From NCBI GenBank assembly GCA_965197475.1, contig CBDANF010000003.1, positions 3,264,001 through 3,328,000 on the forward strand: 64,000 nt of DNA, in the 5' to 3' direction. Positions 12,326-43,385 of the stretch are shown here, one piece after another. The DNA is from Candidatus Poribacteria bacterium. Lineage in GTDB: Bacteria; Poribacteria; WGA-4E; WGA-3G. Numbering within the stretch: the stretch's first letter is position 1; each line of letters starts with the position of its first letter. A program made the translations under genes and the position numbers. The notes beneath the pieces are model-generated. The model saw only the letters and a list, made by a program, of their open reading frames with translations. It searched no databases and had not been told where the DNA came from.

Positions 12326-15300
12326 TTACTTTCGTATCAACATCTTGCGCGTAGCAGAAAAATCACCTGCAGTGAGTGTATAAAAATAGATACCACTTGC
12401 AACAGATTCACCGAACTCATTTTTACCATCCCAATACGCTGCACGACTGCGACTTTGATAGGTGCCAGCGGGCAGGTGTCCTAACGCTAGCGTTCGAACT
12501 ATCTTACCATCTGCAGAATAGATAGAGATGCTAACATCGGCAGGTGCTGCCAACTGATACGGTATCCACGTCTCAGGATTGAACGGGTTGGGGAAGTTGG
12601 GAAGGAGTTCAGTTTGTATAGGCGTTGTTTGTGCTGACGGCGCACGGTTGTCAGCTTCTTCAGGAATTGTTATATCAAGGTCTAAACCTGGATGATCCGG
12701 AAGTGCCTCAATTGCTGCGACGAGTGTGCGGAGCGGTCCATAATCTGAAATAGAATTTCCAGCGAGCTTGAGCCTTCCCAGATTTGTCAAGTCTTCAAGT
12801 GGAGATATGTCGCTGATGCTGTTAGAGTGCAGATAGAGCGTTGTCAGTGAAGTCAACTCTTCAAGCGTTGATATATCGCTGATGCTGTTACCGCCCAGAT
12901 AGAGCGTTGTCAGTGAAGTTGACTCTTCAAGCGTTGATATATCGATGATGCTGTTACTGGTCAGACCGAGCGTTGTCAGTGAAGTCAAGTCTTCAAGTGC
13001 CGATATATTGCTGATACTGTTACCGGACAGATTGAGGTATGTGAGATTTGTCAAGTTTTCAAGCGTTGATATATCGCTGATGCCGTTATCCCGCAGATTG
13101 AGCCTTGTCAGATTTGTCAAGTTTTGAAGCGTTGATATATCGCTGAGGCCATTATCCCGCAGATTGAGCGATGTCAGTGAAATCAATCCATCAAAATCAC
13201 CTAATTGCAGTGTTGTGATCCCTTTATTGTCAAGACGAAGTGAAGTAATAGCTGCGAGGTGTGCCGCAGTCACATCATCTGCTGAATTCACACCTGCTGC
13301 TCGGACAATAGCATCACGCACCTGTTGTGTGCGTTCACTGAGCGGCAGAGGTGGAATTGTAATATCAAGCCATAAACTTCCATCAGCTGCCTTGATTACT
13401 GCAATGAGTCTACGGAGCGGTCCGTAATCTGATATCGTATTTCTACTGAGATCGAGCGTTGTCAGATTTGTCAAGTTTTGAAGCGTTGATATATCGCTGA
13501 TGCTGTTATGGCGCAGATCGAGGTATGTCAGATTTGTCAAATCTTCAAGGGCAGATATATCGCTGATGCTGTTATCGTCCAGATAGAGGTGTGTCAGATT
13601 TGTCAAGTTTTGAAGCGTTGATATATCGCTGATGCTGTTATCGTCCAGAGAGAGCCCTATCAGATTTGTCAAGTTTTGAAGCGTTGATATATCGCTGATG
13701 CTGTTATCGTCCAGACAGAGCCCTGTCAGATTTGTCAAGTTTTGAAGCGTTGATATATCGCTGATGCTGTTACCGTACAGATTGAGCGATGTCAGATTTG
13801 TCAAGTTTTGAAGCGTTGATATATCGCTGATGCTGTTATGGCGCAGACCGAGCCCTGTCAGATTTGTCAAATCTTCAAGGGCAGATATATCGCTGATGCT
13901 GTTATTCCACAGATAGAGGTATGTGAGATTTGTCAAGTTTTGAAGCGTTGATATATCGCTGATGCTGTTATGGCACAGATTGAGGTATGTCAGATTTGTC
14001 AAATCTTCAAGGGCAGATATATCGCTGATGCTGTTACCGTACAGAGAGAGCCCTGTCAGTGAAGTCAATCCATCAAAATCACCGGTTTGCAGTGTTGTGA
14101 TCCCTTTATTTATAAGATAAAGCGAAGTAATAGCTGCGAGGTGCGTTGCAGTCACATCATCTGCAGAACTAACCCCCGGCACTGCGGCAACAATAGCATC
14201 CTGCACCTGCCGTGTGCGTTCACTGATTGGTGTTGGAATTGTAATATCAAGGTATAAACGTCCACCAGCTTCCTTGATTACTGCAATGAGTCTGCGGAGC
14301 GGTCCGTAATCTGATATCGGATTTCCAGAGAGATTGAGCCATGTCAGATTTGTCAAGTTTTGAAGCGTTGATATATCGCTGATGCTGTTATCGTACAGAT
14401 AGAGGTATGTGAGATTTGTCAAGTTTTGAAGCGTTGATATATCGCTGAGGCTGTTAGCACCCAGATAGAGCGTTGTGAGATTTGTCAAGTTTTGAAGCGT
14501 TGATATATCGCTGAGGCTGTTAGCACCCAGATAGAGCGTTGTGAGATTTGTCAAGTCTTCAAGTGGTGATATATCGCTGAGGCTGTTACGGGACAGAGTG
14601 AGGTATGTGAGATTTGTCAAGTTTTGAAGCGTTGATATATCGCTGAGGCTGTTACGGGACAGAGTGAGGTATGTGAGATTTGTCAAGTTTTGAAGCGTTG
14701 ATATATCGCTGATGCTGTTACGGGACAGATTGAGCGTTGTCAGTGAAGTCAATCCATCAAAATCACCGGTTTGCAGTGTTGTGATCCCTTTATTGTCAAG
14801 ACGAAGCGAAGTAATAGCTGCGAGGTGTGTTGCTGTCACATCATCTGCAGAACTAACCCCTGGCACAGCTAGGACAATAGCATCACGCACCTGTTGTGTG
14901 CGGATTGGTGTTGGAATTGGAATATCAAGCCATAAACTTCCATTAGCTGCCACAATTGCTTCGATGAGTGTGCGGAGCGGTCCATAATCTGAAATAGAAT
15001 TTCCAGCGAGCTTGAGCGTTGTCAGATTTGTCAAGTCTTCAAGTGGAGATATATCGCTGATGCTGTTAGAGTGCAGATAGAGCTTTGTCAGATTTGTCAA
15101 CTCTTCAAGCGTTGATATATCGCTGATGCTGTTACCGCCCAGATAGAGCGTTGTCAGTGAAGTCAACTCTTCAAGCGTTGATATATCGATGATGCTGTTA
15201 CTGGTCAGACCGAGCGTTGTCAGATTTGTCAACTCTTCAAGCGCAGATATATTGCTGATGCTGTTACCGGACAGATTGAGGTATGTCAGATTTGTCAAGT

Positions 15301-16378
15301 TTTGAAGCGTTGATATATCGCTGATGCTGTTATCCCGCAGATTGAGGTATGTCAGATTTGTCAAGTTTTGAAGCGTTGATATATCGCTGATGCTGTTATC
15401 CCGCAGATTGAGGTATGTCAGATTTGTCAAGTTTTGAAGCGTTAATATATCGCTGAGGCTGTTATCCCGCAGATAGAGCGTTGTCAGTGAAGTCAATCCA
15501 TCAAAATCACCGGTTTGCAGTGTTGTGATCCCTTTATTGTCAAGACTAAGTGAAGTAATCGCTGCGAGGTGTGTTGCTGTCACATCATCTGCTGAATTCA
15601 CACCTGCTGCAGCAACAATAGCATCCTGCACCTGTTGTGTGCGTTCACTGAGCGGCAGAGATGGAATTGTAATATCAGGCCGTAAACTTCTACTAGCTGC
15701 CTCTATTGCTGCGATGAGTCTGCGGAGCGGTCCGTAATCTGATATCCCATTTCCAGCGAGCTTGAGCGTTGTCAGATTTGTCAAGTCTTCAAGTGGAGAT
15801 ATATCGCTGATGCTGTTACCGCCCAGATAGAGCTTTGTCAGTGAAGTCAAGTCTTCAAGCGGAGATATATCGCTGATGCTGTTACTGGTCAGACCGAGCG
15901 TTGTCAGTGAAGTCAACTCTTCAAGGGCAGATATATCGCTGATGCTGTTACTGGACAGAGTGAGGTATGTCAGATTTGTCAAGTTTTGAAGCGTTGATAT
16001 ATCGCTGATGCTGTTAGCGTTCAGAGTGAGGTATGTCAGATTTGTCAAGTTTTGAAGCGTTGATATATCGCTGAGGCCGTTAGAGGACAGACCGAGCGTT
16101 GTCAGTGAAGTCAATCCATCAAAATCACCTTCTTGCAGTGTTGTGATCCCTTTATTTCCAAGACGAAGCAAAGTAATCGCTGCGAGGTGTGTTTCGGTTA
16201 CATCGCTGGCAGTATTTATGCCCGGCACAGCAGCTACGATTTCATCGCGCACTTGTGGTGTGCGATCGGTAACAGGCGTGACAGCCGCATAACTCGTGCC
16301 ATATGTGCCGAGAATAATTAAAAGAGATACTAAAATAGATAAGACATACTTTTGATTTAGAAATTGTGTTTTCAACAT
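12326..16378 (-). CDS. Secreted LRR protein with five capped 22-aa LRR cassettes and FlgD-Ig/T9SS-like C-terminal domain
   Basis: Signal peptide; five RTxQVxDxIV N-caps each closed by ISDYGPLR...LDIxIP C-caps; tail PNPFNPETWIPYQL...RKMLIRK. Confidence 0.9.
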   Translation of the reverse strand: MLKTQFLNQKYVLSILVSLLIILGTYGTSYAAVTPVTDRTPQVRDEIVAAVPGINTASDVTETHLAAITLLRLGNKGITTLQEGDFDGLTSLTTLGLSSNGLSDISTLQNLTNLTYLTLNANSISDISTLQNLTNLTYLTLSSNSISDISALEELTSLTTLGLTSNSISDISPLEDLTSLTKLYLGGNSISDISPLEDLTNLTTLKLAGNGISDYGPLRRLIAAIEAASRSLRPDITIPSLPLSERTQQVQDAIVAAAGVNSADDVTATHLAAITSLSLDNKGITTLQTGDFDGLTSLTTLYLRDNSLSDILTLQNLTNLTYLNLRDNSISDISTLQNLTNLTYLNLRDNSISDISTLQNLTNLTYLNLSGNSISNISALEELTNLTTLGLTSNSIIDISTLEELTSLTTLYLGGNSISDISTLEELTNLTKLYLHSNSISDISPLEDLTNLTTLKLAGNSISDYGPLRTLIEAIVAANGSLWLDIPIPTPIRTQQVRDAIVLAVPGVSSADDVTATHLAAITSLRLDNKGITTLQTGDFDGLTSLTTLNLSRNSISDISTLQNLTNLTYLTLSRNSLSDISTLQNLTNLTYLTLSRNSLSDISPLEDLTNLTTLYLGANSLSDISTLQNLTNLTTLYLGANSLSDISTLQNLTNLTYLYLYDNSISDISTLQNLTNLTWLNLSGNPISDYGPLRRLIAVIKEAGGRLYLDITIPTPISERTRQVQDAIVAAVPGVSSADDVTATHLAAITSLYLINKGITTLQTGDFDGLTSLTGLSLYGNSISDISALEDLTNLTYLNLCHNSISDISTLQNLTNLTYLYLWNNSISDISALEDLTNLTGLGLRHNSISDISTLQNLTNLTSLNLYGNSISDISTLQNLTNLTGLCLDDNSISDISTLQNLTNLIGLSLDDNSISDISTLQNLTNLTHLYLDDNSISDISALEDLTNLTYLDLRHNSISDISTLQNLTNLTTLDLSRNTISDYGPLRRLIAVIKAADGSLWLDITIPPLPLSERTQQVRDAIVRAAGVNSADDVTAAHLAAITSLRLDNKGITTLQLGDFDGLISLTSLNLRDNGLSDISTLQNLTNLTRLNLRDNGISDISTLENLTNLTYLNLSGNSISNISALEDLTSLTTLGLTSNSIIDISTLEESTSLTTLYLGGNSISDISTLEELTSLTTLYLHSNSISDISPLEDLTNLGRLKLAGNSISDYGPLRTLVAAIEALPDHPGLDLDITIPEEADNRAPSAQTTPIQTELLPNFPNPFNPETWIPYQLAAPADVSISIYSADGKIVRTLALGHLPAGTYQSRSRAAYWDGKNEFGESVASGIYFYTLTAGDFSATRKMLIRK

Positions 16379-16676
16379 AAACTCCTTTTTTGTTAGTTTC
16401 AGACGGTAGATGCGGTTTGCTAACCGAGATTCTGTCTGAACCAGGATTCACAGGATTATAGGATTTTCAGGATTACAGAAGATTACCCATCTAATGCTAA
16501 CCCTAATAAGAGACAACTTGCAATCAAAGAAACCCAATAATCCTGGAAATCTGGAAATCCTGAAAATCCTGGTTCAGACAAGGCATTACTTCAAAATAGC
16601 CATTTTGCGCAGGAAGGACACACTGTCCGCCTGCAGTTGATAGAAATAGACCCCTGCCGCAACCTTCTCACCGAAT
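16220..16676 (+). repeat. Long direct repeat, copy 1 (copy 2 at 39320-39776)
   Basis: Identical to the sequence 23100 bp downstream from 16220 to 16598, then near-identical to about 16676. Confidence 0.92.
16433..16580. mobile_element. MITE/REP-like palindromic element, family A (TGTCTGAACCAGGATT...AATCCTGGTTCAGACA)
   Basis: 16-bp perfect terminal inverted repeats, arms made of AGGATT sub-repeats; further copies at 39533-39680 and 43203-43380. Confidence 0.8.
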
Positions 16677-19600
16677 GTGTTTTTACCATCCCAATGGATA
16701 GCACGGCTACGACTCAGATAAACACCCGCAGGTTTCTGGCCTAACTTCAACTGCCGCACCACAACGCCCCGCATATCGTAGATTGTCAACGTGACCTCTG
16801 CTGGCTTGGACAGTTGATACGGTATCCACGTCTCAGGGTTGAACGGGTTGGGGAAGTTGGGAAGGAGTTCAGTTTGTATAGGCGTTGCTGGTGCTGACAG
16901 GGCACGGTTGTCAGCTTCTTCAGGAATTGTTATATCAAGGTATAAACTTCTACCAGCTGCCTCAATTACTGCGATGAGTCTGCGGAGCGGTCCGTAATCT
17001 GATATCGGATTTCCCCGGAGCCAGAGCCTTGTCAGATTTGTCAAGTTTTGAAGTGGAGATATATCGCTGAGGCTGTTATCGCCCAGATGGAGCCTTGTCA
17101 GTGAAGTCAATCCATCAAAATCACCGGTTTGCAGTGTTGTGATCCCTTTATTGTCAAGACTAAGCAAAGTAATAGCTGCGAGGTGTCTTGCTGTCACATC
17201 ATCTGCAGAACTAACCCCCGGCACTGCAGCAACAATAGCATCACGCACCTGCCGTGTGCGTTCACTGAGCGGCAGAAGTGGAATTGTAATATCAAGGTTT
17301 AAACGTCCACCAGCTGCCTCGATTGCTGCGATGAGTCTGCGGAGCGGTTCGTAATCTGATATCGGATTCCCCCAGAGCCAGAGCCTTGTCAGATTTGTCA
17401 AGTTTTGAAGCGGAGATATATCGCTGATGCTGTTATTGGTCAGATAGAGCCATGTCAGATTTGTCAAGTTTTGAAGCGTTGATATATCGCTGATGCGGTT
17501 AGAGCGCAGATCGAGCGTTGTCAGATTTGTCAGATTTGTCAAGTTTTGAAGCGTTGATATATCGCTGAGGCTGTTATCGCCCAGCTTGAGCCTTGTCAGT
17601 GAAGTCAATCCATCAAAATCACCGGTTTGCAGTGTTGTGATCCCTTTATCGTTAAGACTAAGTGAAGTAATAGCTGCGAGGTGTGTTCCTGTCACATCAT
17701 CTGCAGAACTAACCCCCGGCACTGCGGCAACAATAGCATCACGCACCTGTTGTGTGCGTTCACTGAGCGGCGGATCAATTGGTGTTGGAATTGTAATATC
17801 AAGTCTTAAACTTCCATCAGCTGCCTCGATTGCTGCGATGAGTCTGCGGAGCGGTCCGTAATCTGATATCGTATTTCCAGCGAGCCTGAGCGATGTCAGA
17901 TTTGTCAAATGTTCAAGCGCAGATATATCGCTGATGCTGTTAGAGCGCAGATAGAGGTATCTGAGATTTGTCAAATGTTCAAGCGCAGATATATCGCTGA
18001 TGCTGTTATTGTTTAGATAGAGGTATGTCAGTGAAGTCAATCCATCAAAATCACCGGTTTGCAGTGTTGTGATCCCTTTATTTATAAGATTAAGCAAAGT
18101 AATAGCAGCGAGATGTGTTGCTGTCACATCATCTGCTGAACTAACCCCCGGCACTGCAGCAACAATAGCATCACGCACCTGCCGTGTGCGTTCACTGAGC
18201 GGCGGATCAATTGGTGTTGGAATTGTAATATCAAGGTTTAAACGTCCACCAGCTGCCTCGATTGCTGCGATGAGTCTGCGGAGCGGTCCGTAATCTGATA
18301 TCGTATTTCCAGCGAGCGTGAGCCATCTCAGATTTGTCAAGTCTTCAAGTGGAGATATATCGCTGATGCTGGTACCGGACAGTTCGAGCGTTGTCAGATT
18401 TGTCAAATGTTGAAGCGTTGATATATCGCTGATGCTGGTATTGTACAGATAGAGCAATGTCAGATTTGTCAAATGTTCAAGCGCAGATATATCGCTGATG
18501 CTGGTATTATTGCCCAGATTGAGCGATGTGAGACTTGTCAAGTTTTCAAGCGCAGATATATCGCTGAGGCTGTTATCCCGCAGAGTGAGATATGTCAGAT
18601 TTGTCAAGTTTTCAAGCGCAGATATATCGATGAGGCTGTTATTCCGCAGATCGAGGTCTGTGAGTGCGGTGAGACCATTAAAATCACCTGCTTGCAGTGA
18701 TGAAATGCCCGATCCCCTTATGTCAAGTTCTGTAATAGCAGCGAGGTGTGCTGCAGTCACATCATCTGCAGAACTAACCCCCGGCACTGCAGCAACAATA
18801 GCATCACGCACCTGCTGTGTGCGTTCACTGAGCGGCGGATCTGGTGTATCGGGTACGTCGGTAACATTAATCGTGACAGTAATGCTATCTGTCCCCCCAT
18901 TCCCATCAGAAACAGAGACCGTGACCGAGTAAGATGTCTTTGTTTCATAATTGAGGGATGCTTTGGTTTGCAGCTGCCCGGAACTACTAACAATACCAAA
19001 AGATGCCGCATCCGTGCCACCGAGTGTATAGGTGAGCGTAGTACCACTATCCGGATCAGTCGCAGCAACCGCACTGCCGATGTTATTACCGGAGGCTGTA
19101 TTTTCTGCGATAGACCGTGATGTGCTGCTGCTATCACTGAACACGGGTGCCTCGTTGACATTCGTGACATTGATCGTGATAGTAATAGTATCCGTAAGGG
19201 TTCCATCTGATACCGTTATAACTACGGTATAGGATGTCTTTGTTTCATAGTCAAGTGCTGCCTTGGTTAGCAACCTTCTGGTCGTGCTATCAAAGGTAAA
19301 CGATGCTGCATCCGCGCCACCCAGACTATAGGTCAACGAGTCACCATCAGGCTCACTCACATCCAAAGCATTACCGATGCTTGTATTTGCAGCGGTATTC
19401 TCAGGAATGGAGCGCGTATCGCTGCTATGTTTAAACGCGGGTGCCTCGTTGACATTCGTGACATTGATTGTGACGCTAATGCTATCACTACCGCCGTTCC
19501 CATCAGAGACAGAGATTGTCACAGAATAGGAGGACCTGCTTTCATAATTGAGAGATGCGCTTGTGCGGAGCTGCCCGTTTGTGCTATTGATGCCAAACGA

Positions 19601-22600
19601 TGCCGCATCCGTGCCACCGAGCGTCCAAGTCAACGTATCGTCATCCGCATCTGTCGCAGCAACGGCAGTACCGATGTTATTACCGGCAGCGGTGTTCTCC
19701 GCAACGGAACGTGATGTGCTTGTGCCATCAGTGAGGGTCGGTGCATCGTTTGCGTCTGTAACGTTGATTGTAACGGTGATGCTATCACTCCCACCATTCC
19801 CATCGGAGACAGAGATTGTCACAGAATAGGAGGACCTGCTTTCATAATTGAGAGCTGCGCTTGTGCGCAACTGCCCGTTTGTGCTGTTAATGTCAAACGA
19901 GGACGCATCTGTGCCACCGAGACTATATTCTAAGGTGTCGTTATCTGGATCGGTTGCAGAGACGGCACTGCCGATGTTTATGCCGGCTGCCGTGTTTTCT
20001 GCGATGGAGCGCGTGGTGCTGATGCCGTCTGTGAAGGTCGGGGCGGTGTTACCACCCTCAGGTGGAATTGTAATATCAAGTCTTAAACTTCCACCAGCTA
20101 CCTCGATTGCTGCGATGAGTCTGCGGAGCGGTCCGTAATCTGAAATCGTATTTCCACGGAGATAGAGCCTTGTCAGATTTGTCAAATCTTCAAGCGCAGA
20201 TATATCGCTGATGCTGTTAGAGCGCAGATGGAGCCATGTCAGATTTGTCAAGTTTTGAAGCGGAGATATATCGCTGATGCTGGTATTGTTTAGATAGAGG
20301 TGTCTGAGATTTGTCAAATCTTCAAGCGGAGATATATCGCTAATGCGGTTATTGTTTAGATAGAGGTATGTCAGTGAAGTCAATCCATCAAAATCACCGG
20401 TTTGCAGTGTTGTGATCCCTTTATTTATAAGATTAAGCAAAGTAATAGCTGCGAGGTGTGTTCCTGTCACATCATCTGCAGAACTAACCCTCGGCACTGC
20501 AGCAACAATAGCATCACGCACCTGCCGTGTGCGTTCACTGAGCGGCGGATCAATTGGTATTGGAATTGTAATATCAAGGTTTAAACGTCCACCAGCTGCC
20601 TCGATTGCGGCGATGAGTCTGCGGAGCGGTCCGTAATCTGATATCGTATTTCCACTGAGATTGAGCCTTGTCAGATTTGTCAAGCTTTCAAGCGCAGATA
20701 TATTGCTGAGGCTGGTATCGGACAAAGAGAGGTATCTCAGATTTGTCAAGTTTTCAAGCACAGATATATCGCTGAGGCTGGTATTATTGCCCAGATTGAG
20801 TGCTCTCAGATTTGTCAAATGTTCAAGCACAGATATATCGCTGATGCTGGTATCGTCCAGATAGAGCGTTGTCAGATTTGTCAAGTTTTGAAGCGGAGAT
20901 ATATCGCTGATGCTGGTATCCTGCAGATAGAGCGATGTGAGATTTGTCAAGTTTTCAAGCGGAGATATATCGCTGAGGCTGGTATTATTGCCCAGATTGA
21001 GGTCTGTGAGACTTGTCAAGTTGTGAAGCGCAGATATATCGCTGAGGCTGTTATCCCGCAGAGTGAGATATGTCAGATTTGTCAAGTTTTGAAGCGCAGA
21101 TATATCGCTGAGGCTGTTATTCCGCAGATCGAGGTCTGTGAGTGCGGTGAGACCATTAAAATCACCTGCTTGCAGTGATGAAATGCCCGATTCCCTTATG
21201 TCAAGTTCTTTAATAGCAGCGAGGTGTGCTGCAGTCACATCATCTGCAGAACTAACCCCCGGCACTGCAGCAACAATAGCATCGCGCACCTGCCGTGTGC
21301 GTTCACTGAGCGGCGGATCAATTGGAATTGTAATATCAAGGTCTAAACTTCTATCAGCTGCCTCGATTGCTGCGATGAGTCTGAGGAGCGGTCCGTAATC
21401 TGAAATCGTATTTCCACGGAGATTGAGCCTTCCCAGATTTGTCAAGCTTTCAAGCGCAGATATATCGCTGATGCTGTTATCGGACAGATCGAGCGTTGTC
21501 AGATTTGTCAAGTTTTGAAGCGCAGATATATCGATGATGCTGTTATCGGGCAGATGGAGCAATGTCAGATTTGTCAAGTTTTGAAGCGGAGATATATCGA
21601 TGATGCTGTTATAGGACAGAAGGAGCCATGTGAGATTTGTCAAGTTTTGAAGCGGAGATATATCGATGATGCTGTTATCGATCAGATAGAGGTATCTGAG
21701 ATTTGTCAAGTTTTGAAGCGGAGATATATCGCTGAGGGGGTTATAGGACAGATAGAGCGTTGTGAGATTTGTCAAGTTTTGAAGCGGAGATATATCGCCG
21801 ATGCTGTTATCGGTCAGATCGAGCAATGTGAGATTTGTCAAGTTTTGAAGCGGAGATATATCGCTGAGGGGGTTATAGGACAGATCGAGCAATGTGAGAT
21901 TTGTCAAGTTTTGAAGCGTTGATATATCGCTGATGCTGTTATCGCCCAGAGAGAGCCTTGTCAGTGAAGTCAATCCATCAAAATCACCGGTTTGCAGTGT
22001 TGTGATCCCTTTATTGTCAAGACTAAGTGAAGTAATAGCTGCGAGGTGTGTTGCAGTCACATCATCTGCAGAACTAACCCCCGACACTGCGGCAACAATA
22101 GCATCGCGCACCTGCCGTGTGCGTTCACTGAGCGGCGGATCAATTGGTGGTGGAATTGTAATATCAAGGTGTAAACGTCCACCAGCTGCCTCGATTGCTG
22201 CGATGAGTCTACGGAGCGGTCCGTAATCTGATATCGAATTTTTAGCGAGCGTGAGGTATCTCAGATTTGTCAAGTTTTCAAGTGGAGATATATCGCTGAG
22301 GCTGTTATCGTCCAGACCGAGCGTTGTCAGATTTGTCAAGTTTTGAAGCGTTGATATATCGCTGATGCTGTTATCGGTCAGACCGAGCGTTGTCAGATTT
22401 GTCAAGTCTTCAAGGGCAGATATATCGCTGAGGTTGTTATCGGGCAGACTGAGCGTTGTCAGATTTGTCAAGTCTTCAAGGGCAGATATATCGCTGAGGC
22501 TGTTACCGGACAGATAGAGCGTTGTCAGATTTGTCAAGTCTTCAAGGGCAGATATATCGCTGAGGCTGTTATTGTACAGATCGAGCCTTGTCAGTGAAGT

Positions 22601-25600
22601 CAATCCATCAAAATCACCGGTTTGCAGTGTTGTGATCCCTTTATCGTCAAGACGAAGTAAAGTAATCGCTGCGAGGTGTGTTGCTGTCACATCATCTGCA
22701 GAACTAACCCCCGGCACTGCAGCAACAATAGCATCACGCACCTGCCGTGTGCGTTCACTGAGCGGCGGATCTGGTGTATCGGGTACGTCGGTAACATTAA
22801 TCGTGACGGTAATGCTATCTGTCCCCCCATTCCCATCAGAAACAGAGACCGTGACCGAGTAAGATGTCTTTGTTTCATAATTGAGGGATGCTTTGGTTTG
22901 CAGCTGCCCAGAACTACTAACAATACCAAAAGATGCCGCATCCGTGCCACCGAGCGTCCAAGTCAACGTATCGTCATCCGCATCTGTCGCAGCAACGGCA
23001 GTACCGATGTTATTACCGGCAGCGGTGTTCTCCGCAACGGAACGTGATGTGCTTGTGCCATCAGTGAGGGTCGGTGCATCGTTTGCGTCTGTAACGTTGA
23101 TTGTGACGCTAATGCTATCACTACCGCCGTTCCCATCAGAGACAGAGATTGTCACAGAATAGGAGGACCTGCTTTCATAATTGAGAGATGCGCTTGTGCG
23201 GAGCTGCCCGTTTGTGCTATTGATGCCAAACGATGCCGCATCCGTGCCACCGAGCGTCCAAGTCAACGTATCGTCATCCGCATCTGTCGCAGCAACGGCA
23301 GTACCGATGTTATTACCGGCAGCGGTGTTCTCCGCAACGGAACGTGATGTGCTTGTGCCATCAGTGAGGGTCGGCGCATCGTTTGCGTCTGTAACGTTGA
23401 TTGTAACGGTGATAGTATCCGTGCTGCTACCATCAAAAGCCGTGACCGTTACCGTATATGAGTTCTTAGCTTCGTAGTCAAGTGCAGCACTGGTTTGCAG
23501 CTGCCCTGTTGTGCTAACAATACTGAATGCGGATGCATCGGTGCCGCTGAGACTATAGGTTAAGCTATCATTGTCCGCATCTGTCGCACCAACCGCACTG
23601 CCGATGTTTATGCCGGAGGCGGTGTTTTCTGCTACGGAGCGGGTAACGGCTGCGCCATCCGTGAACACCGGTGGTGTTGGAATTGTAATATCAAGGTCTA
23701 AACTTCTACCAGCTGCCTCAATTGCTGCGATGAGTCTGAGGAGCGGTCCGTAATCTGATATCGGATTTCCCCGGAGCCAGAGCCTTGTCAGATTTGTCAA
23801 ATCTTCAAGCGCAGATATATCGCTGAGGCGGTTAGAGCGCAGATAGAGGTATCTGAGATTTGTCAAATCTTCAAGCGCAGATATATCGATGAGGCGGTTA
23901 TAGGACAGATAGAGCGTTGTGAGATTTGTCAAATCTTCAAGCACAGATATATCGCTGAGGCTGGTATTGTACAGATAGAGCGATGTGAGATTTGTCAAAT
24001 CTTCAAGCGCAGATATATCGCTGAGGCTGGTATTATTGCTCAGATGGAGCCATGTGAGATTTGTCAAGTTTTCAAGCACAGATATATCGCTGATGCTGTT
24101 ATAGGACAGATAGAGCCATGTCAGATTTGTCAAGTTTTGAAGCGGAGATATATCGCTGATGCTGTTATCGCCCAGATCGAGCGATGTCAGTGAAGTCAAT
24201 CCATCAAAATCACCGGTTTTCAGTGTTGTGATCCCTTTATTGCCAAGACCAAGTGAAGTAATAGCTGCGAGGTGCGTTGCAGTCACATCATCTGCAGAAC
24301 TAACCCCCGGCACTGCGGCAACAATAGCATCGCGCACCTGCTGTGTGCGTTCACTGAGCGGCGGATCTGGTGTATCGGGTACGTCGGTAACATTAATCGT
24401 GACAGTAATGCTATCTGTCCCCCCATTCCCATCAGAAACAGAGACCGTGACCGAGTAAGATGTCTTTGTTTCATACTCCAGGGCTGCTTTGGTTTGCAGC
24501 TGCCCGGAACTGCTAACAATACCAAAAGATGCCGCATCCGTGCCACCGAGTGTATAGGTGAGCGTAGTACCACTATCCGGATCAGTCGCAGCAACCGCAC
24601 TGCCGATGTTATTACCGGAGGCTGTATTTTCTGCGATAGACCGTGATGTGCTGCTGCTATCACTGAACACGGGTGCCTCGTTGACATTCGTGACATTGAT
24701 CGTGATAGTAATAGTATCCGTAAGGGTTCCATCTGATACCGTTACAACTACGGTATAGGATGTCTTTGTTTCATAGTCAAGTGCTGCCTTGGTTAGCAAC
24801 CTTCTGGTCGTGCTATCAAAGGTAAACGATGCTGCATCCGCGCCACCCAGACTATAGGTCAACGAGTCACCATCAGGCTCACTCACATCCAAAGCATTAC
24901 CGATGCTTGTATTTGCAGCGGTATTCTCAGGAATGGAGCGCGTATCGCTGCTATGTTTAAACGCGGGTGCCTCGTTGACATTCGTGACATTGATTGTGAC
25001 GCTAATGCTATCACTACCGCCGTTCCCATCAGAGACAGAGATTGTCACAGAATAGGAGGACCTGCTTTCATAATTGAGAGATGCGCTTGTGCGGAGCTGC
25101 CCGTTTGTGCTATTGATGCCAAACGATGCCGCATCCGTGCCACCGAGACTATATTCTAAGGTGTCGTTATCTGGATCGGTTGCAGCGACAGGTGTGCCGA
25201 TGTCATTACCGGCAGCGGTGTTCTCCGCAACGGAACGTGATGTGCTTGTGCCATCGGTGAGGGTCGGCGCATCGTTTGCGTCTGTAACGTTGATTGTAAC
25301 GGTGATAGTATCCGTGCTGCTACCATCAAAAGCCGTGACCGTTACCGTATATGAGTTCTTAGCTTCGTAGTCAAGTGCAGCACTGGTTTGCAGCTGCCCT
25401 GTTGTGCTAACAATACTGAATGCGGATGCATCGGTGCCGCTGAGACTATAGGTTAAGCTATCATTGTCCGCATCTGTCGCACCAATCGCACTGCCGATGT
25501 TTATGCCGGAGGCGGTGTTTTCTGCTACGGAGCGGGTGACGGCTGCGCCATCCGTGAACACCGGCGCACGGTTGCTGGGCGCGTTGAAGATCGTCAACGG

Positions 25601-27361
25601 TAGATTGGCAGATTTGACAGGTTCGTAGCCTCTATGTCGCGTAGGTAGCCCCGGCAATGGGTTTCCAATATCCACAGTAACTGCACCCGTTGTGCCGGAC
25701 GTGCGCGTCACAGTCCGAGATGTACTCTCCACGCCCCCTTGCGGAATTGTAAGCGTAGTTGCGCCGCCGCTGATGCTGCCATTCGCAACGCTAACAGGCA
25801 GGATAATTGCGAACGGCGCACCCGCAGGCGCGGTCGCTTTAAACTGGTTCACCCCGACCTTTTCTAATGACACAGTCAACGGCATGAGGGCCACGCTGTT
25901 AGCTTGTAGCTGGAGCAATGTCAATCTAGTCAATCCACGAAATACCCCCGCTGGTAGCGTTGAAAGTTGATTGCCATTCAAAAGCAGTTGTATCAATGAT
26001 GATAAACCGGAAAACACGGCCGTGGGCAGGTCTGTCAGTTGGTTACCATCCAAATAGAGGTATTGTAGTTTTGACAATCCCGAAAACACATCTTGAGGTA
26101 GACTCGTAAGTCTGTTATTACGCAGAAAGAGTTGCGTCAGTGATGGTAAACCCGAAAACGCGTCCTCATGTATACTCCTCAACCTATTGGAGTGTATGTT
26201 AATCTGTGTCAGAGACGACATTCCAGAAAATAGATTTTGCGGGAGAGTCGCCAACTGATTGTTATGTATGTGGAGGTCTGTCACCGCGGTTAATCCAGAA
26301 AACACTTCTGGCGATAGACTTGTCAACTGATTATTACCCAAATCGAGCGTTTTCAGGGATGACAGCTCAGAGAACACATCGGCAGGAAGTGTTCTCAATT
26401 GGTTACCTTGCAATTGGAGTTCCGTAAGTGCTGTTAGTCCGTCAAAATCGCCTGCATTCAGCGTTGAAATACCCTTATTGCGCAGATTGAGACTGGTAAT
26501 CGTAGCGAGGTGTGCTTCCGTTACATCGTTGGCACTATTCACACCGGGGAGTGCCGCGACAATCGCATCGCGCACCTGTGGTGTGATTGCTGATAGGCGA
26601 TACCGTTTCGGGGCCTCAGGGATACTAGGTCCGGGAACAATTACCCTTAACTCACTCGATAAGGGGCGTCTGTCAGTCGTGCATACTGCGCCTACTGCAT
26701 CACAATCTTCTGTCGGTAGCAGGACGATAGACACCTCCGCATTTGATTCGGGTTCAATAGTGATTTCCCAACCAAGGTTGCTGCCCTGCTGCAAGCGTCT
26801 CACGGCTTTCACCGTGCCGCCGGTCACGTTGAGTACGTCATCCCGCACGTTCCTGTAACTAATCCTGATTTTCTCACTAAAGTGAAGCTCAAACGTGAAC
26901 GTGCTGCCATCATGTGATTCTGGCAATGCTTCAAAACGTGCTGTCAAACTCACTTCTGGTATATCGGTGATGTTGATAGTAATAGTGATAGTGTCGGTCA
27001 AGCTGCCATCGGAGACGGTTACGATTACGGTATAGGTCTGTTTTGTTTCGTAATCAAGTGCGGACTTGGTTCTCAGTTGACCAGTATTGTTATCAATACT
27101 AAACACAGCGGCATCCGTGCCGCTGAGACTATAAGTTAAGGTATCGTTGTTTACATCTGTCGCACTCACGGGAGTGCCGATGTTTATGCCCGATGCGGTA
27201 TTTTCGGCGATTGTATGAGTGGTGGAAGTGCCATCCGTGAACACCGGCGCACTGTTAGACGGTGCACTGATAACTTCCAACGGCAGAGCTGCACCAAAAA
27301 CTATTAAAATCGTCACGAAAATGGATACGACATACTTTTTATTTCCTATAAGCGTTTTCAT
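16586..27361 (-). CDS. Giant secreted LRR/cadherin-repeat adhesin (about 3590 aa)
   Basis: ATG at 27361 with AAGGAG RBS; many NxAPxF...AENT...LDYE cadherin-like domains, one 24-aa LRR block, nine capped 22-aa LRR cassettes, PNPFNPETWIPY tail. Confidence 0.9.
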   Translation of the reverse strand: MKTLIGNKKYVVSIFVTILIVFGAALPLEVISAPSNSAPVFTDGTSTTHTIAENTASGINIGTPVSATDVNNDTLTYSLSGTDAAVFSIDNNTGQLRTKSALDYETKQTYTVIVTVSDGSLTDTITITINITDIPEVSLTARFEALPESHDGSTFTFELHFSEKIRISYRNVRDDVLNVTGGTVKAVRRLQQGSNLGWEITIEPESNAEVSIVLLPTEDCDAVGAVCTTDRRPLSSELRVIVPGPSIPEAPKRYRLSAITPQVRDAIVAALPGVNSANDVTEAHLATITSLNLRNKGISTLNAGDFDGLTALTELQLQGNQLRTLPADVFSELSSLKTLDLGNNQLTSLSPEVFSGLTAVTDLHIHNNQLATLPQNLFSGMSSLTQINIHSNRLRSIHEDAFSGLPSLTQLFLRNNRLTSLPQDVFSGLSKLQYLYLDGNQLTDLPTAVFSGLSSLIQLLLNGNQLSTLPAGVFRGLTRLTLLQLQANSVALMPLTVSLEKVGVNQFKATAPAGAPFAIILPVSVANGSISGGATTLTIPQGGVESTSRTVTRTSGTTGAVTVDIGNPLPGLPTRHRGYEPVKSANLPLTIFNAPSNRAPVFTDGAAVTRSVAENTASGINIGSAIGATDADNDSLTYSLSGTDASAFSIVSTTGQLQTSAALDYEAKNSYTVTVTAFDGSSTDTITVTINVTDANDAPTLTDGTSTSRSVAENTAAGNDIGTPVAATDPDNDTLEYSLGGTDAASFGINSTNGQLRTSASLNYESRSSYSVTISVSDGNGGSDSISVTINVTNVNEAPAFKHSSDTRSIPENTAANTSIGNALDVSEPDGDSLTYSLGGADAASFTFDSTTRRLLTKAALDYETKTSYTVVVTVSDGTLTDTITITINVTNVNEAPVFSDSSSTSRSIAENTASGNNIGSAVAATDPDSGTTLTYTLGGTDAASFGIVSSSGQLQTKAALEYETKTSYSVTVSVSDGNGGTDSITVTINVTDVPDTPDPPLSERTQQVRDAIVAAVPGVSSADDVTATHLAAITSLGLGNKGITTLKTGDFDGLTSLTSLDLGDNSISDISPLQNLTNLTWLYLSYNSISDISVLENLTNLTWLHLSNNTSLSDISALEDLTNLTSLYLYNTSLSDISVLEDLTNLTTLYLSYNRLIDISALEDLTNLRYLYLRSNRLSDISALEDLTNLTRLWLRGNPISDYGPLLRLIAAIEAAGRSLDLDITIPTPPVFTDGAAVTRSVAENTASGINIGSAVGATDADNDSLTYSLSGTDASAFSIVSTTGQLQTSAALDYEAKNSYTVTVTAFDGSSTDTITVTINVTDANDAPTLTDGTSTSRSVAENTAAGNNIGTAVAATDADDDTLTWTLGGTDAASFGINSTNGQLRTSASLNYESRSSYSVTISVSDGNGGSDSISVTINVTDANDAPTLTDGTSTSRSVAENTAAGNNIGTAVAATDADDDTLTWTLGGTDAASFGIVSSSGQLQTKASLNYETKTSYSVTVSVSDGNGGTDSITVTINVTDVPDTPDPPLSERTRQVRDAIVAAVPGVSSADDVTATHLAAITLLRLDDKGITTLQTGDFDGLTSLTRLDLYNNSLSDISALEDLTNLTTLYLSGNSLSDISALEDLTNLTTLSLPDNNLSDISALEDLTNLTTLGLTDNSISDISTLQNLTNLTTLGLDDNSLSDISPLENLTNLRYLTLAKNSISDYGPLRRLIAAIEAAGGRLHLDITIPPPIDPPLSERTRQVRDAIVAAVSGVSSADDVTATHLAAITSLSLDNKGITTLQTGDFDGLTSLTRLSLGDNSISDISTLQNLTNLTLLDLSYNPLSDISPLQNLTNLTLLDLTDNSIGDISPLQNLTNLTTLYLSYNPLSDISPLQNLTNLRYLYLIDNSIIDISPLQNLTNLTWLLLSYNSIIDISPLQNLTNLTLLHLPDNSIIDISALQNLTNLTTLDLSDNSISDISALESLTNLGRLNLRGNTISDYGPLLRLIAAIEAADRSLDLDITIPIDPPLSERTRQVRDAIVAAVPGVSSADDVTAAHLAAIKELDIRESGISSLQAGDFNGLTALTDLDLRNNSLSDISALQNLTNLTYLTLRDNSLSDISALHNLTSLTDLNLGNNTSLSDISPLENLTNLTSLYLQDTSISDISPLQNLTNLTTLYLDDTSISDISVLEHLTNLRALNLGNNTSLSDISVLENLTNLRYLSLSDTSLSNISALESLTNLTRLNLSGNTISDYGPLRRLIAAIEAAGGRLNLDITIPIPIDPPLSERTRQVRDAIVAAVPRVSSADDVTGTHLAAITLLNLINKGITTLQTGDFDGLTSLTYLYLNNNRISDISPLEDLTNLRHLYLNNTSISDISPLQNLTNLTWLHLRSNSISDISALEDLTNLTRLYLRGNTISDYGPLRRLIAAIEVAGGSLRLDITIPPEGGNTAPTFTDGISTTRSIAENTAAGINIGSAVSATDPDNDTLEYSLGGTDASSFDINSTNGQLRTSAALNYESRSSYSVTISVSDGNGGSDSITVTINVTDANDAPTLTDGTSTSRSVAENTAAGNNIGTAVAATDADDDTLTWTLGGTDAASFGINSTNGQLRTSASLNYESRSSYSVTISVSDGNGGSDSISVTINVTNVNEAPAFKHSSDTRSIPENTAANTSIGNALDVSEPDGDSLTYSLGGADAASFTFDSTTRRLLTKAALDYETKTSYTVVITVSDGTLTDTITITINVTNVNEAPVFSDSSSTSRSIAENTASGNNIGSAVAATDPDSGTTLTYTLGGTDAASFGIVSSSGQLQTKASLNYETKTSYSVTVSVSDGNGGTDSITVTINVTDVPDTPDPPLSERTQQVRDAIVAAVPGVSSADDVTAAHLAAITELDIRGSGISSLQAGDFNGLTALTDLDLRNNSLIDISALENLTNLTYLTLRDNSLSDISALENLTSLTSLNLGNNTSISDISALEHLTNLTLLYLYNTSISDISTLQHLTNLTTLELSGTSISDISPLEDLTNLRWLTLAGNTISDYGPLRRLIAAIEAAGGRLNLDITIPTPIDPPLSERTRQVRDAIVAAVPGVSSADDVTATHLAAITLLNLINKGITTLQTGDFDGLTSLTYLYLNNNSISDISALEHLTNLRYLYLRSNSISDISALEHLTNLTSLRLAGNTISDYGPLRRLIAAIEAADGSLRLDITIPTPIDPPLSERTQQVRDAIVAAVPGVSSADDVTGTHLAAITSLSLNDKGITTLQTGDFDGLTSLTRLKLGDNSLSDISTLQNLTNLTNLTTLDLRSNRISDISTLQNLTNLTWLYLTNNSISDISPLQNLTNLTRLWLWGNPISDYEPLRRLIAAIEAAGGRLNLDITIPLLPLSERTRQVRDAIVAAVPGVSSADDVTARHLAAITLLSLDNKGITTLQTGDFDGLTSLTRLHLGDNSLSDISPLQNLTNLTRLWLRGNPISDYGPLRRLIAVIEAAGRSLYLDITIPEEADNRALSAPATPIQTELLPNFPNPFNPETWIPYQLSKPAEVTLTIYDMRGVVVRQLKLGQKPAGVYLSRSRAIHWDGKNTFGEKVAAGVYFYQLQADSVSFLRKMAILK

Positions 27362-27430
27362 GATAAACTCCTTAATAATGTTAGTAATGTTAATAATGTT
27401 TTTCGGTTGTAAACTATTACATAAGTTACA

Positions 27431-27456
27431 GTAGGTGCGGTTAGAAACCGCACCTA
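27431..27456. repeat. GTAG-type REP palindrome
   Basis: GTAGGTGCGGTT-AGA-AACCGCACCTA; same family recurs at 50023-50288 and 52467-52608. Confidence 0.75.
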
Positions 27457-27465
27457 TCACTTCTT

Positions 27466-43380: not shown

Positions 43381-43385
43381 AGGTG

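Follow-up and report, generated by a model that had tools for sequence, protein, structure and literature searches.

LRR cassettes with hypervariable concave-face codons in two genes of a Candidatus Poribacteria bacterium: probable diversifying selection on putative surface proteins

Introduction

Two adjoining minus-strand genes, g1 and g2, lie within a 64,000-nucleotide stretch of a Candidatus Poribacteria contig (the window, meaning the whole stretch analysed) and encode arrays of LRR units whose DNA is almost uniform except at four codons per unit. The question raised by this locus is what keeps those codons so variable: selection on binding surfaces, a programmed rewriting of the genes, loss of constraint, or an artefact. 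We read g1 and g2 as giant adhesin-like exported proteins of a sponge symbiont whose variable codons are under diversifying selection, and assign this reading as a whole a probability of roughly 0.7.

Gene architecture and predicted export

The coordinates of the genes, cassettes and other features are given in Table 1. The earlier note had counted 14 self-contained cassettes, and the cap motifs give the same number, five in g1 and nine of the 22-aa type in g2. Each cassette would form one horseshoe consisting of an N-cap, 2 to 10 units and a helical C-cap, with cadherin-like domains interspersed in g2. The g1 product matches the Pfam profiles LRR_4 (2.8e-155, 27 stretches) and FlgD_ig (34.1 bits, cut-off 27), and the g2 product matches LRR_4 (2e-221), Cadherin (7.9e-132) and FlgD_ig. 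The open frame of g2 extends to 27475 (16586-27475, 3629 aa); its own protein in the database, P0124, has 3591 aa. The N-terminal ~55 aa of g1 and g3 are the same.

Because the C-terminal sorting domain (CTD) of g1 exceeds the TIGR04183 cut-off, we propose that g1 and g2 are exported and probably displayed on the cell surface. Both proteins end in a T9SS-type-A-like CTD, the same type being found at the ends of g3 and two more genes of the window, and the motif 'NPFNP[EST]T' occurs 43 times genome-wide. A canonical T9SS machinery for these CTDs has yet to be established: the scores of three PorU-like ORFs, 255-279 bits, fall under the 420-bit cut-off, and Kamke et al. 2014 (PMC3909097) report that they did not find Por structural genes in Poribacteria.

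Table 1. Features of the LRR locus (positions in the window)
Feature	Coordinates	Strand	Description
g1	12326..16378	-	1350 aa (ORF and translation); signal-peptide-like N-terminus (called by eye), 5 capped LRR cassettes A-E, CTD
CTD of g1	12326..12700	-	NCBIfam TIGR04183, 37.1 bits (cut-off 23)
Cassette A	15659..16270	-	g1 aa 37-240; 6 units
Cassette B	14909..15649	-	g1 aa 244-490; 8 units; paralogue of E
Cassette C	14234..14908	-	g1 aa 491-715; 7 units
Cassette D	13352..14224	-	g1 aa 719-1009; 10 units; modelled by AF2
Cassette E	12662..13339	-	g1 aa 1014-1239; 7 units
g2	16586..27361	-	3591 aa from ATG; cadherin-like domains, one 24-aa-LRR cassette, nine 22-aa-LRR cassettes F-N, CTD
g2 N-terminal cassette	25841..26587 (approximate limits)	-	N-cap as in 22-aa cassettes, but 24-aa 'typical' LRRs
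Cassette F	23678..24355	-	g2 aa 1041-1266; 7 units, one of 23 aa ('NNTS') and one with Asn-to-Thr
Cassette G	22151..22759	-	g2 aa 1573-1775; 6 units
Cassette H	21323..22129	-	g2 aa 1783-2051; 9 units
Cassette I	20555..21307	-	g2 aa 2057-2307; 8 units
Cassette J	20063..20539	-	g2 aa 2313-2471; 4 units; paralogue of L
Cassette K	18218..18829	-	g2 aa 2883-3086; 6 units; paralogue of I
Cassette L	17786..18196	-	g2 aa 3094-3230; 3 units
Cassette M	17279..17764	-	g2 aa 3238-3399; 4 units; 3-aa 'NLT' slip insertion (unit spacing 25)
Cassette N	16922..17266	-	g2 aa 3404-3518; 2 units; minimal cassette
g3 (neighbour gene)	27530..39478	-	3982 aa; cadherin-like domains, 24-aa-LRR cassettes with related caps, dockerin, CTD as in g1
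Duplicated junction	16173..16868	-	3' end of upstream CTD, intergenic region and 5' end of g1; repeated at 39273-39968, upstream of g3

Distribution of variation among and within codons

There are 87 units, of which 83 measure 66 bp and four, with an additional codon ('NNTS'), 69 bp. Their consensus codons, CTG ACA nnn CTC nnn CTG nnn nnn AAC AGC ATC AGC GAT ATA TCT, agree with the repeat string read in the earlier note, and variation is concentrated, as expected from it, at unit positions 6, 8, 10 and 11 and is not uniform across codon positions. Amino-acid entropy at these four positions is 2.78, 3.03, 3.22 and 2.66 bits, followed by the convex positions 22, 19, 21 and 13 (2.14, 1.73, 1.66 and 1.36 bits); the remaining 14 positions are at or below 0.91 bits. 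Hypervariable codons that had previously been missed occur in the caps as well, at N-cap codons 32, 34, 36 and 37 ('SLrLdnKG') and C-cap codon 20 ('RLnLDITIP'), and the cap DNA around them is almost invariant.

The claim that synonymous framework sites are nearly fixed holds for some codons, including L7 (CTC in 83/83), D16 (GAT in 79/83) and L1 (TTG in 79/83), but others are dimorphic (ACA/ACT 63/17, CTG/CTC 63/20, AAC/AAT 61/15, TCT/TCA 40/27). The pairwise difference at framework third bases is 0.25-0.28 with all unit classes pooled, and framework pS is 0.05-0.12 in the 20 closest of 91 cassette pairs, aligned position by position.

Among the hypervariable codons, the pairwise difference is 0.65 at base 1, 0.61 at base 2 and 0.37 at base 3. 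The third base is specific to the position (G58/C23/T2 at position 6, T72/G10/A1 at 8, C56/T13/G14 at 10 and T69/A13/G1 at 11), and therefore the same amino acid is encoded by a different codon at each of them, threonine, for example, by ACG at 6, ACT at 8 and ACC at 10. T is rare as the second base of hypervariable codons (6 of 332; chi-square p=4e-26). The residues are mainly Y (18%), D (13%), G and S (12% each), T and R (11% each) and N (8%), and F, V and M are absent.

Predicted fold and binding surface

The AF2 model of cassette D (pLDDT 91.1, pTM 0.88) has one short strand per unit, spanning unit positions 6-10. Its top PDB match in Foldseek is InlA (8h64_G, E 1.2e-25, TMq 0.76), with a Roco LRR (5il7) likewise among the best and InlA/E-cadherin complexes, e.g. 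2omv, among the matches; a phmmer search of PDB sequences yielded 5il7_A (4.9e-81) and InlA (4.4e-73), as well as VLR-derived repebodies. All three analyses place the variable codons where they had been assigned, on the concave face of an internalin-type LRR solenoid. The concave faces would bind ligands. Each horseshoe would offer a separate concave surface, made up of unit positions 6, 8, 10 and 11 plus the corresponding strand positions in the two caps, and it is reasonable to suppose that many specificities are displayed on one polypeptide. The two polypeptides would thereby carry a panel of 14 or more distinct binding surfaces, encoded in the germline.

Duplication, recombination and the question of programmed diversification

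The cassettes are probably young, having arisen as units and cassettes were duplicated in tandem, deleted and recombined, which would explain their almost uniform DNA framework, and the locus as a whole would be a mosaic of between-species recombination. Such repeat shuffling, proposed earlier, is borne out by the cassette comparisons. Cassettes B and E are 93.0% identical (12704-13177 versus 14948-15421), and K and I 93.4% (18326-18841 versus 20804-21319). The junction upstream of g1 has a 699-bp duplicate of 90.8% identity whose 208-bp intergenic core has the same sequence at both sites (16379-16586 and 39479-39686; 100% identity). Between g2 and h1, the same gene in the genome G003 of another species, pS forms a mosaic along the length, eight other gene comparisons between the two species give a pS of 0.165-0.53, well above the framework pS of the positional cassette alignments (0.05-0.12), and different cassette types have expanded in each species. 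Recent duplication and mosaic recombination account for the uniformity of the framework, which does not stem from a synonymous constraint specific to LRRs.

Programmed, high-frequency diversification within the genome, in the manner of VLRs or antigenic variation, would go further, with cells of one population differing and near-identical cassettes acting as donors, while short-patch conversion or unequal recombination continually reshuffles unit numbers and hypervariable words. The identity of the framework would suffice for homologous recombination: 43 unit pairs have all 54 framework nucleotides in common yet differ, on average, at 5.84 of the 12 hypervariable ones; hypervariable words recur across cassettes, unit and cassette numbers vary between paralogues and between species, a cassette query has 108 matches in the genome, and the identical junction core points the same way. 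Multi-base changes make up half of those separating the closest cassettes at hypervariable codons (7 double and 3 triple among 20 in the three closest pairs), a share that alignment of cassettes with unequal unit numbers may inflate by pairing non-orthologous units. The multi-base differences described earlier are also seen in 4704 codon comparisons drawn from 49 internal units (803 identical, 1522 with one, 1763 with two and 616 with three nucleotides changed); short-patch gene conversion between units, hidden by the identical framework, may be the source of some apparent substitutions.

However, the RVT_1 (reverse transcriptase) profile has no match in the 92.7%-complete genome (a control search was positive in 3 of 14 genomes), no recombinase, transposase or reverse transcriptase is present among the 32 window ORFs scanned, and there are no silent or truncated donor arrays nearby, every cassette being part of a long intact ORF of expressed type. 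Hypervariable residues also persist from species to species: cassette B and the last cassette of the homologue P0004 have 17 of 24 in common, and between cassette I and its G003 match 23 of 37 hypervariable codons show no change. That third bases are specific to the position points to descent by point substitution, and their retention argues for such substitution under selection and against codon replacement. Programmed diversification is thus unlikely, and a VLR-like assembly or templated rewriting of the receptor genes is not supported; since the hypervariable residues are inherited across species, 'VLR-like' describes a functional analogy only. This is striking yet conventional adaptive evolution and not a gene-assembly system of the lamprey style.

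Probable selection on the hypervariable codons

In pooled NG86 comparisons, which are non-independent given that units and cassettes are paralogous and which ignore transition/transversion bias, hypervariable codons have a pN of 0.601, a pS of 0.332 and a dN/dS of 2.77, as against a dN/dS of 0.38 for the core framework and 0.91 for the convex variable positions. A bootstrap over units gave uncorrected ratios of 1.81 (95% range 1.56-2.22) for hypervariable pN to hypervariable pS and 2.07 (95% range 1.80-2.45) for hypervariable pN to core framework pS. Summed over the three closest paralogous cassette pairs, hypervariable pN is 0.172 (31.75/184.2) and framework pS 0.085 (31.9/377.2), a ratio of 2.0 (Fisher p=0.0028). 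Cassette I has its best match in a G003 cassette (h1 aa 1835-2084) whose positional counterpart is K; I and this match align without gaps over 249 codons at 94.1% nucleotide identity, with a hypervariable pN of 0.203 (18.2/89.3), a framework pS of 0.049 (8/163.3) and a framework pN of 0.034 (ratio 4.1, OR 4.9, Fisher p=3e-4). Hypervariable codons accordingly change faster than the synonymous rate in pooled, bootstrap, paralogous and orthologous comparisons, in agreement with the diversifying selection postulated earlier; the pattern fits such selection, not hypermutation or a mutational hot spot.

Relaxed constraint alone, with exposed concave positions of recent repeats drifting in the absence of positive selection or specific ligands, would be in keeping with the variability of the exposed x positions of LxxLxLxxN in every LRR family and with the near-neutral rate at convex positions 13, 19, 21 and 22. 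We consider it quite improbable, as the excess over the synonymous rate recurs in four partly independent comparisons and the alphabet, with its scarcity of second-base T, is strongly non-random, which neutral drift of NNT, NNC and NNG codons would not be expected to produce. Diversifying (positive) selection would instead exchange residues on the concave face while keeping to a restricted, paratope-like set (Tyr, Asp, Gly, Ser, Thr, Arg, Asn, Trp and His, with nearly no aliphatic residues), and the selective agent is presumably the host sponge or another biotic ligand.

An assembly artefact, in which the arrays are a chimeric or mis-ordered collapse of repeats from several metagenome strains, is very unlikely. 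The assembly is of metagenome type with an estimated contamination of 6.97%, short-read contigs break throughout the region into pieces of 130-1000 bp, none of them spanning, and a mis-join of in-frame 66-bp units would leave no frameshift. Nevertheless, the contig is 4.17 Mb long in an assembly of three contigs, the g1 and g2 reading frames run uninterrupted for 4 and 10.9 kb, and short-read pieces at least 99% identical to the window number 373 (set X1) and 489 (set X3). Furthermore, G003, a one-contig genome assembled independently, carries the gene with a cassette matching unit for unit, and further assemblies have the same architecture.

A DGR or other targeted mutagenesis, superficially suggested by variation in codon bases 1-2 with base 3 kept (NNT, NNC, NNG), much as in AAY-to-NNY targets, was rejected as having a negligible chance because the 92.7%-complete genome has no RVT_1 match and the framework adenines that a DGR would mutate (in ACA, AAT, AAC, AGC, GAT and ATA) are fixed; in addition, the 87 targets have no template repeat and the third-base difference of hypervariable codons is near that of the framework.

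Comparison with known systems

The best sequence and fold matches are Listeria class 1 internalins (InlA, InlB, InlH), which share the 22-residue LRR and the signature LxxLxLxxNxIsDIsxL and are likewise surface proteins of a host-associated bacterium, as g1 and g2 appear to be. InlA binds its ligand by the concave face. Internalins, however, have one LRR domain per protein as opposed to 5 to 10 in g1 and g2, an Ig-like inter-repeat domain where the cassettes close with a short helix-plus-strand C-cap, and LPXTG or GW modules for anchoring in place of a T9SS-type CTD; the NCBIfam internalin_A profile scores 158.9 bits against a cut-off of 1600 bits.

Lamprey and hagfish VLRs also combine an LRR solenoid with diversity at concave strand positions, and their contact residues are rich in Tyr, Asp, Asn, Ser and Gly. 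VLR units are 24 aa long, the caps are Cys-rich (LRRNT and LRRCT), and diversity is somatic, cytidine deaminases taking part in the copying of flanking donor cassettes into a germline gene that is incomplete. In contrast, the germline holds every poribacterial cassette in complete form, and the cassettes are inherited across species, with no Cys caps, donor arrays or nearby candidate enzyme.

In plant NLR and R-gene LRRs, exposed xxLxLxx residues show an excess of non-synonymous change, with birth-and-death evolution and unequal recombination in clusters. These features are common to both systems, but the poribacterial case is bacterial, probably extracellular and multi-domain per polypeptide, with a far more uniform DNA framework. 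TAL effectors are likewise built from tandem DNA repeats that are near-identical apart from a few codons per repeat holding all the specificity (the RVD code), and their arrays evolve by recombination; they differ in their helical DNA-binding fold, in having two variable residues per 34 aa and in being type III effectors.

Within Poribacteria, Kamke et al. 2014 (PMC3909097) described eukaryote-like repeat proteins, among them abundant LRR_4 (pfam12799) proteins and Cadherin and Ig-like domains with signal peptides, and noted a TIGR04183-type CTD. Its passages on these proteins give no account of arrays of several capped cassettes, of hypervariable codons on the concave face or of tests for selection, and its text nowhere uses the word 'hypervariable'.

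Among 237 homologues (3066 units), the same four unit positions have the highest entropy (3.24-3.80 bits), and multi-array proteins are common, 145 of the 237 containing three or more separate arrays.

Organization of the cassette genes

Two of three adjacent giant genes in the window, g1 and g2, appear to encode giant adhesins that a sponge symbiont is predicted to export and that carry a germline set of capped LRR modules of the internalin type, putatively for binding; these modules would have been recently expanded and recombined, with positively selected contact residues. We give this reading a probability of roughly 70%. Each module, or cassette, consists of an N-cap, 2 to 10 LRR units and a C-cap. 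The earlier note counted 14 cassettes, and extraction gave the same number, five in g1 (cassettes A–E) and nine of the 22-aa type in g2 (cassettes F–N); its consensus DNA string is likewise correct on the 87 units extracted (83 of 66 bp and four of 69 bp). The N-cap is ~50 aa long (RTxQVRDAIVAAVPGVSSADDVT..HLAAITsLxLxxKGITTLQTGDFDG) and the C-cap ~30 aa (ISDYGPLRRLIAAIEAAG..LxLDITIP).

The g1 protein starts with a segment that, judged by eye, resembles a signal peptide; its LRRs match Pfam LRR_4 (2.8e-155) and its C-terminal sorting domain (CTD) reaches 34.1 bits against Pfam FlgD_ig, whose cut-off is 27. The g2 protein has cadherin-like domains (Pfam Cadherin 7.9e-132, 12 stretches), one 24-aa-LRR cassette, the nine 22-aa-LRR cassettes and a CTD of the same type as that of g1; g2, unlike g1, classes as a cadherin adhesin. 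Among minor irregularities, an additional codon is present in four units ('NNTS'), Thr (ACC) takes the place of the conserved Asn in 7 of 83, and cassette M contains a three-residue 'NLT' slip duplication ('LQNLTNLTNLTTL', 17468–17608) that makes the unit spacing 25 rather than 22.

Coordinates of the cassette genes, neighbouring features and PorU-like ORFs (positions in the window unless a contig is given)
Feature	Position	Strand	Description
g1	12326–16378	minus	1350 aa; five LRR cassettes and CTD
g2	open frame 16586–27475; database copy from ATG at 27361	minus	database copy 3591 aa
g3	27530–39478	minus	3982 aa; upstream of g2
Intergenic region upstream of g1	16379–16586		208 bp
Copy upstream of g3	39479–39686		208 bp
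Zincin-like/LRR gene	10738–12033 and 10057–10737	minus	two ORFs of one gene
DUF4955 tandem paralogues	39580–42223 and 43279–45929		
DUF1670 (HTH) genes	52713–54406		two adjacent genes
PorU-model partial match	G000:C3:63668–68764		2169 aa
PorU-model partial match	G000:C2:1200210–1205780		2196 aa
PorU-model partial match	G000:C3:3901215–3905594		1749 aa

Hypervariable positions and predicted fold

Variation is concentrated in four codons of the unit. At unit positions 6, 8, 10 and 11 (the hypervariable, or hv, codons) amino-acid entropy is 2.78, 3.03, 3.22 and 2.66 bits; it falls to 2.14, 1.73, 1.66 and 1.36 bits at positions 22, 19, 21 and 13, on the convex side, and does not exceed 0.91 at the other 14. 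Tyr, Asp, Gly, Ser, Thr, Arg and Asn account for 85% of hv residues, with Phe, Val and Met absent; only 6 of 332 hv codons have T as second base (p=4e-26), and the 83 units contain 69 distinct four-residue hv words.

The third base of the hv codons is set by position (position 6, G58/C23/T2; position 8, T72/G10/A1; position 10, C56/T13/G14; position 11, T69/A13/G1; n=83 units) and not by the amino acid, so Thr is ACG at position 6, ACT at 8 and ACC at 10; Ser, Gly and Tyr codons follow the same rule. Descent from one ancestral unit together with selection for amino-acid change would produce such position-specific third bases. A local mutational hot spot or wholesale codon replacement would be expected to randomise all three bases, and retention of the third base argues against both.

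Some framework codons are near-invariant (L7 CTC in 83/83, D16 GAT and L1 TTG each in 79/83) and others dimorphic (ACA/ACT 63/17, CTG/CTC 63/20, AAC/AAT 61/15, TCT/TCA 40/27). Between pooled units, hv codons differ at 0.65, 0.61 and 0.37 of first, second and third bases, against 0.25–0.28 for framework third bases. By this last figure the earlier statement that synonymous framework sites are nearly fixed was somewhat overstated; it is fair for a position-by-position alignment of the cassettes, which gives a framework pS of 0.05–0.12 in the 20 closest of the 91 cassette pairs.

The AlphaFold2 model of cassette D (pLDDT 91.1, pTM 0.88) has one short strand per unit over positions 6–10 and a C-cap made of a helix (272–284) and a strand. 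Its best structural matches in Foldseek were Listeria InlA (8h64_G, E 1.2e-25, TMq 0.76) and a Chlorobium Roco LRR, while the best PDB sequence matches were 5il7_A (4.9e-81) and InlA (4.4e-73). With a tandem LxxLxLxxN solenoid and one strand per 22 residues, the cassettes belong to the bacterial 22-residue internalin-type LRR class. Because the model strands cover unit positions 6–10 and the matches are to InlA and Roco, the hv codons can be assigned to the concave face, where the earlier note had placed them. The cap DNA is almost invariant except at N-cap codons 32, 34, 36 and 37 (the first LxLxx strand) and at C-cap codon 20 (within the last strand); the variable patch of the model therefore spans the whole sheet.

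Evidence for diversifying selection on the hypervariable codons

Pooled Nei-Gojobori dN/dS was 2.77 in hv codons, compared with 0.38 in the core framework and 0.91 at the variable positions of the convex side, in comparisons that are non-independent since the units are paralogues. Bootstrapping over units gave an uncorrected pN/pS within hv codons of 1.81 (1.56–2.22) and a ratio of hv pN to core-framework pS of 2.07 (1.80–2.45). In the three closest paralogous cassette pairs (B–E, I–K and J–L, summed), hv pN, at 0.172, exceeded a framework pS of 0.085 (Fisher p=0.0028), and framework pN was 0.051; where cassettes have unequal unit numbers, the alignment may pair non-orthologous units. The cleanest test is an orthologous pair, cassette I of g2 and its best match in the orthologous gene of G003, a one-contig genome of another species, which align without gaps over 249 codons at 94.1% nucleotide identity. 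Here hv pN was 0.203 (18.2/89.3), framework pS 0.049 (8/163.3) and framework pN 0.034 (odds ratio 4.9, p=3e-4). The pooled, paralogous and orthologous comparisons all support the diversifying selection that the earlier note had suspected.

Half of the hv codon changes in the close paralogous pairs (10/20) are multi-base, so some of the apparent substitutions may have come about by replacement of units or by short-patch conversion, neither of which would leave a trace in an identical framework. Divergence at hv codons is unrelated to that of the framework, being 5.84/12 nt in 43 unit pairs with identical frameworks and ~6.0/12 nt in pairs with at least 10 framework differences, which we read as saturation on a star-like genealogy. 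Values from unit pairs with at most two framework differences (pN 0.538 vs pS 0.034) were dropped as a rate estimate, because choosing pairs by their framework biases it.

Framework uniformity, duplication and probable exchange between species

In G003 the orthologous gene shares both the framework codons (L7 CTC in 33/33) and the position-specific third bases. Other synonymous framework codons occur in more distant arrays, both in another genome (G007) and in two paralogues in the window's own genome (L090 and L091, at C3:2.20 Mb and C3:2.55 Mb). A codon constraint that holds for all arrays is therefore absent. Between the two species, pS in cassette frameworks is 0.04–0.09, as opposed to 0.165–0.53 in eight other gene comparisons (LarA 0.466, MinC 0.347, TruA-like 0.419, HD 0.419, MR_MLE 0.294, SDR 0.165, and two partial genes 0.26 and 0.53). 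Synonymous constraint specific to the LRRs would account for the low framework values; it was rejected, for pS is equally low in the cadherin-like sequence adjoining cassette K (0.0–0.15) and in some stretches of the N-terminal block, where it ranges from 0.016 to 0.65 across 80-codon windows, and the codons of distant arrays differ. Species-specific concerted evolution of units was not seen either, core-framework pS being 0.291 within the window's genome, 0.250 within G003 and 0.276 between them.

Different cassette types have expanded in the two species, and a 699-bp junction, which runs from the end of a CTD across the intergenic region into the 5' end of the following gene, occurs twice in the window with a 208-bp core that is 100% identical. 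Together with the mosaic pS along the g2 comparison, these features bear out the earlier proposal that recombination shapes the arrays. The sequence comparisons point to young duplicates, birth and death of cassettes and a recombination mosaic, and not to selection on synonymous sites, as the source of framework uniformity. The mosaic probably includes exchange between species, gene flow being judged here from the eight gene comparisons rather than genome-wide.

Gene order around the locus is conserved only in part: MR_MLE adjoins it in the window and lies ~0.5 Mb from the orthologous LRR genes on G003 contig C1. The 208-bp intergenic region upstream of g1, of which the copy upstream of g3 is 100% identical, contains an inverted repeat of GGATT-rich words. 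Parts of it have 92 blastn matches genome-wide, including tandem copies ~68 bp apart at C3:603645–604737, and it looks like a REP/MITE-like interspersed element. Loose ends fall at 16433, 16474, 16538 and 16581 in all four public runs aligned to the window.

Comparison with known systems of LRR diversification

The earlier note also implied that diversity in the arrays is generated as in the variable lymphocyte receptors (VLRs) of lampreys, and this part of the analogy does not hold. A receptor of VLR type is assembled, somatically or at the population level, from an incomplete germline gene and flanking silent donor LRR cassettes; here all cassettes lie in long intact ORFs and no silent donor cassettes were found nearby. 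A diversity-generating retroelement (DGR), a possible source of codon-targeted change, was rejected because no reverse transcriptase (RVT_1) was matched in the 92.7%-complete genome, by a search whose control was positive in 3/14 genomes, and because many framework adenines are fixed. Recombinases, transposases and reverse transcriptases were likewise absent from the 32 window ORFs scanned with Pfam. The hv residues are heritable: 17/24 are identical between cassette B of g1 and the last cassette of a homologous protein (P0004), and 23/37 hv codons are unchanged in the cassette I/G003 pair. Likeness to VLRs is therefore limited to where the diversity lies and to probable function, and does not extend to how it is made. 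The caps differ too, for VLRs have Cys-rich LRRNT and LRRCT and the poribacterial N-cap and C-cap sequences contain no cysteine.

Nor are the proteins class 1 internalins of Listeria at full length. The NCBIfam models internalin_A and internalin_H gave 158.9 and 138.1 bits, against cut-offs of 1600 and 1050; in place of the Ig-like inter-repeat domain that follows the LRRs of those proteins there is the C-cap, and instead of an LPXTG or GW anchor, with no LPXTG seen in the g1 and g2 translations, there is a CTD of the TIGR04183 type.

A much bolder reading, which we consider improbable, would give the Poribacteria a population-level counterpart of VLR-type recognition, in the form of a genome-encoded repertoire of ~100 LRR modules that share an antibody-like contact alphabet and are recombination-competent through their uniform framework. 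The modules would undergo constant reshuffling within genomes and pass between co-resident species, each strain presenting its own combination of binding surfaces to the sponge host or its phagocytes.

Predicted export signal

The CTD of g1 is of the T9SS type A (NCBIfam TIGR04183, 37.1 bits, cut-off 23); on Pfam Por_Secre_tail (cut-off 27) g3 scores above the threshold (28.7) and g1 below it (18.7). The PorU sortase was the one T9SS component searched for, and three very large ORFs of the genome match its model in part, with 255–279 bits where the cut-off is 420. These ORFs are candidate processing enzymes for the ~45 CTD-bearing proteins of the genome. Excerpts from Kamke et al. 2014 (PMC3909097) state that Por structural genes were not found in Poribacteria and describe an abundance there of proteins with LRR_4, cadherin and Ig-like domains that carry signal peptides and TIGR04183 tails; hypervariable cassettes are not mentioned in these excerpts.

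Distribution among relatives and significance

The cassette query has 108 matches in the window's own genome (5.70 Mb, 3 contigs, 43.5% GC) and matches in 30 of 31 related genomes, including all 18 of the same genus. Homologues of g1 number more than 5675 at E<=1e-3 among 7999 scored candidates, and those of the g2 cassette region 1355 at E<=1e-50 among 2406. In 237 retrieved homologues (3066 units) entropy is again highest at positions 6, 8, 10 and 11 (3.24–3.80 bits), and 145 of them carry at least three separate arrays (median 4, maximum 12). The hv pattern is, on this sequence evidence, a trait of the family and not peculiar to the g1/g2 locus.

The only 100% match to the g2 protein is the window's own protein, the next best being 69% over 16%, and the best protein match to g1 is 67%. 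A scan of metagenome contigs found no close strain among 34 loci, a 75% match (L100) sharing the CTD only. Window sequence occurs in 18 public runs, none of them of RNA and the best containing 0.59 of the sampled words; the four aligned (X1, X3, X4 and X7) consist of short-read contigs of 130–1000 bp, many multi-mapping and none spanning a cassette. The open-access literature searched gave no account of capped LRR cassettes with hypervariable codons from Poribacteria.

Sponge symbionts are rich in 'eukaryote-like' repeat proteins, and this locus offers a concrete handle on how they work and what they bind. The LRR domains are discrete and small (115–291 aa), are predicted from the model to fold independently, and have identified putative contact residues, so they could be expressed singly to fish for sponge ligands. 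The positive selection signal suggests that the symbiont is engaged with its host (or with a phage or predator) in a continuing molecular contest or in partner-matching, rather than displaying a static scaffold, and the low, mosaic synonymous divergence relative to the eight other gene comparisons hints at flow of adhesin modules between Poribacteria species. With a uniform framework and four to five designable positions per repeat, the cassettes are also a natural counterpart to engineered LRR binders (repebodies, DLRRs) and could inform scaffold design.

Neighbouring genes

Two minus-strand ORFs downstream of g1 represent one gene, whose product combines a zincin-like HExxH region with LRRs and has a C-terminal domain of another type. 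An in-frame TGA at 10738–10740 breaks the gene mid-LRR ('...VSPLA*LTELWYLQL...'), probably a recent nonsense mutation or the mark of a pseudogene. No Pfam match at E<=1e-5 was obtained for the ORFs at 46379–49807 (1142 aa), 60829–62889 (686 aa), 8202–8927 and 51062–51694. The DUF4955 tandem paralogues, which contain a dockerin and a CTD of the g1 type, are 92.8% identical over 2657 bp, and two DUF1670 genes lie beyond them. The g3 protein has about seven 'PVVPDPDP' linker repeats at aa ~240–300, a dockerin, and 24-aa-LRR cassettes with the same N-cap as those of g1 and g2 and a related C-cap. In the 11 of its 24-aa units caught by pattern, entropy is highest at positions 8, 10 and 11 (2.16, 2.55 and 2.85 bits), and position 6 (1.87 bits) is tied with position 13.
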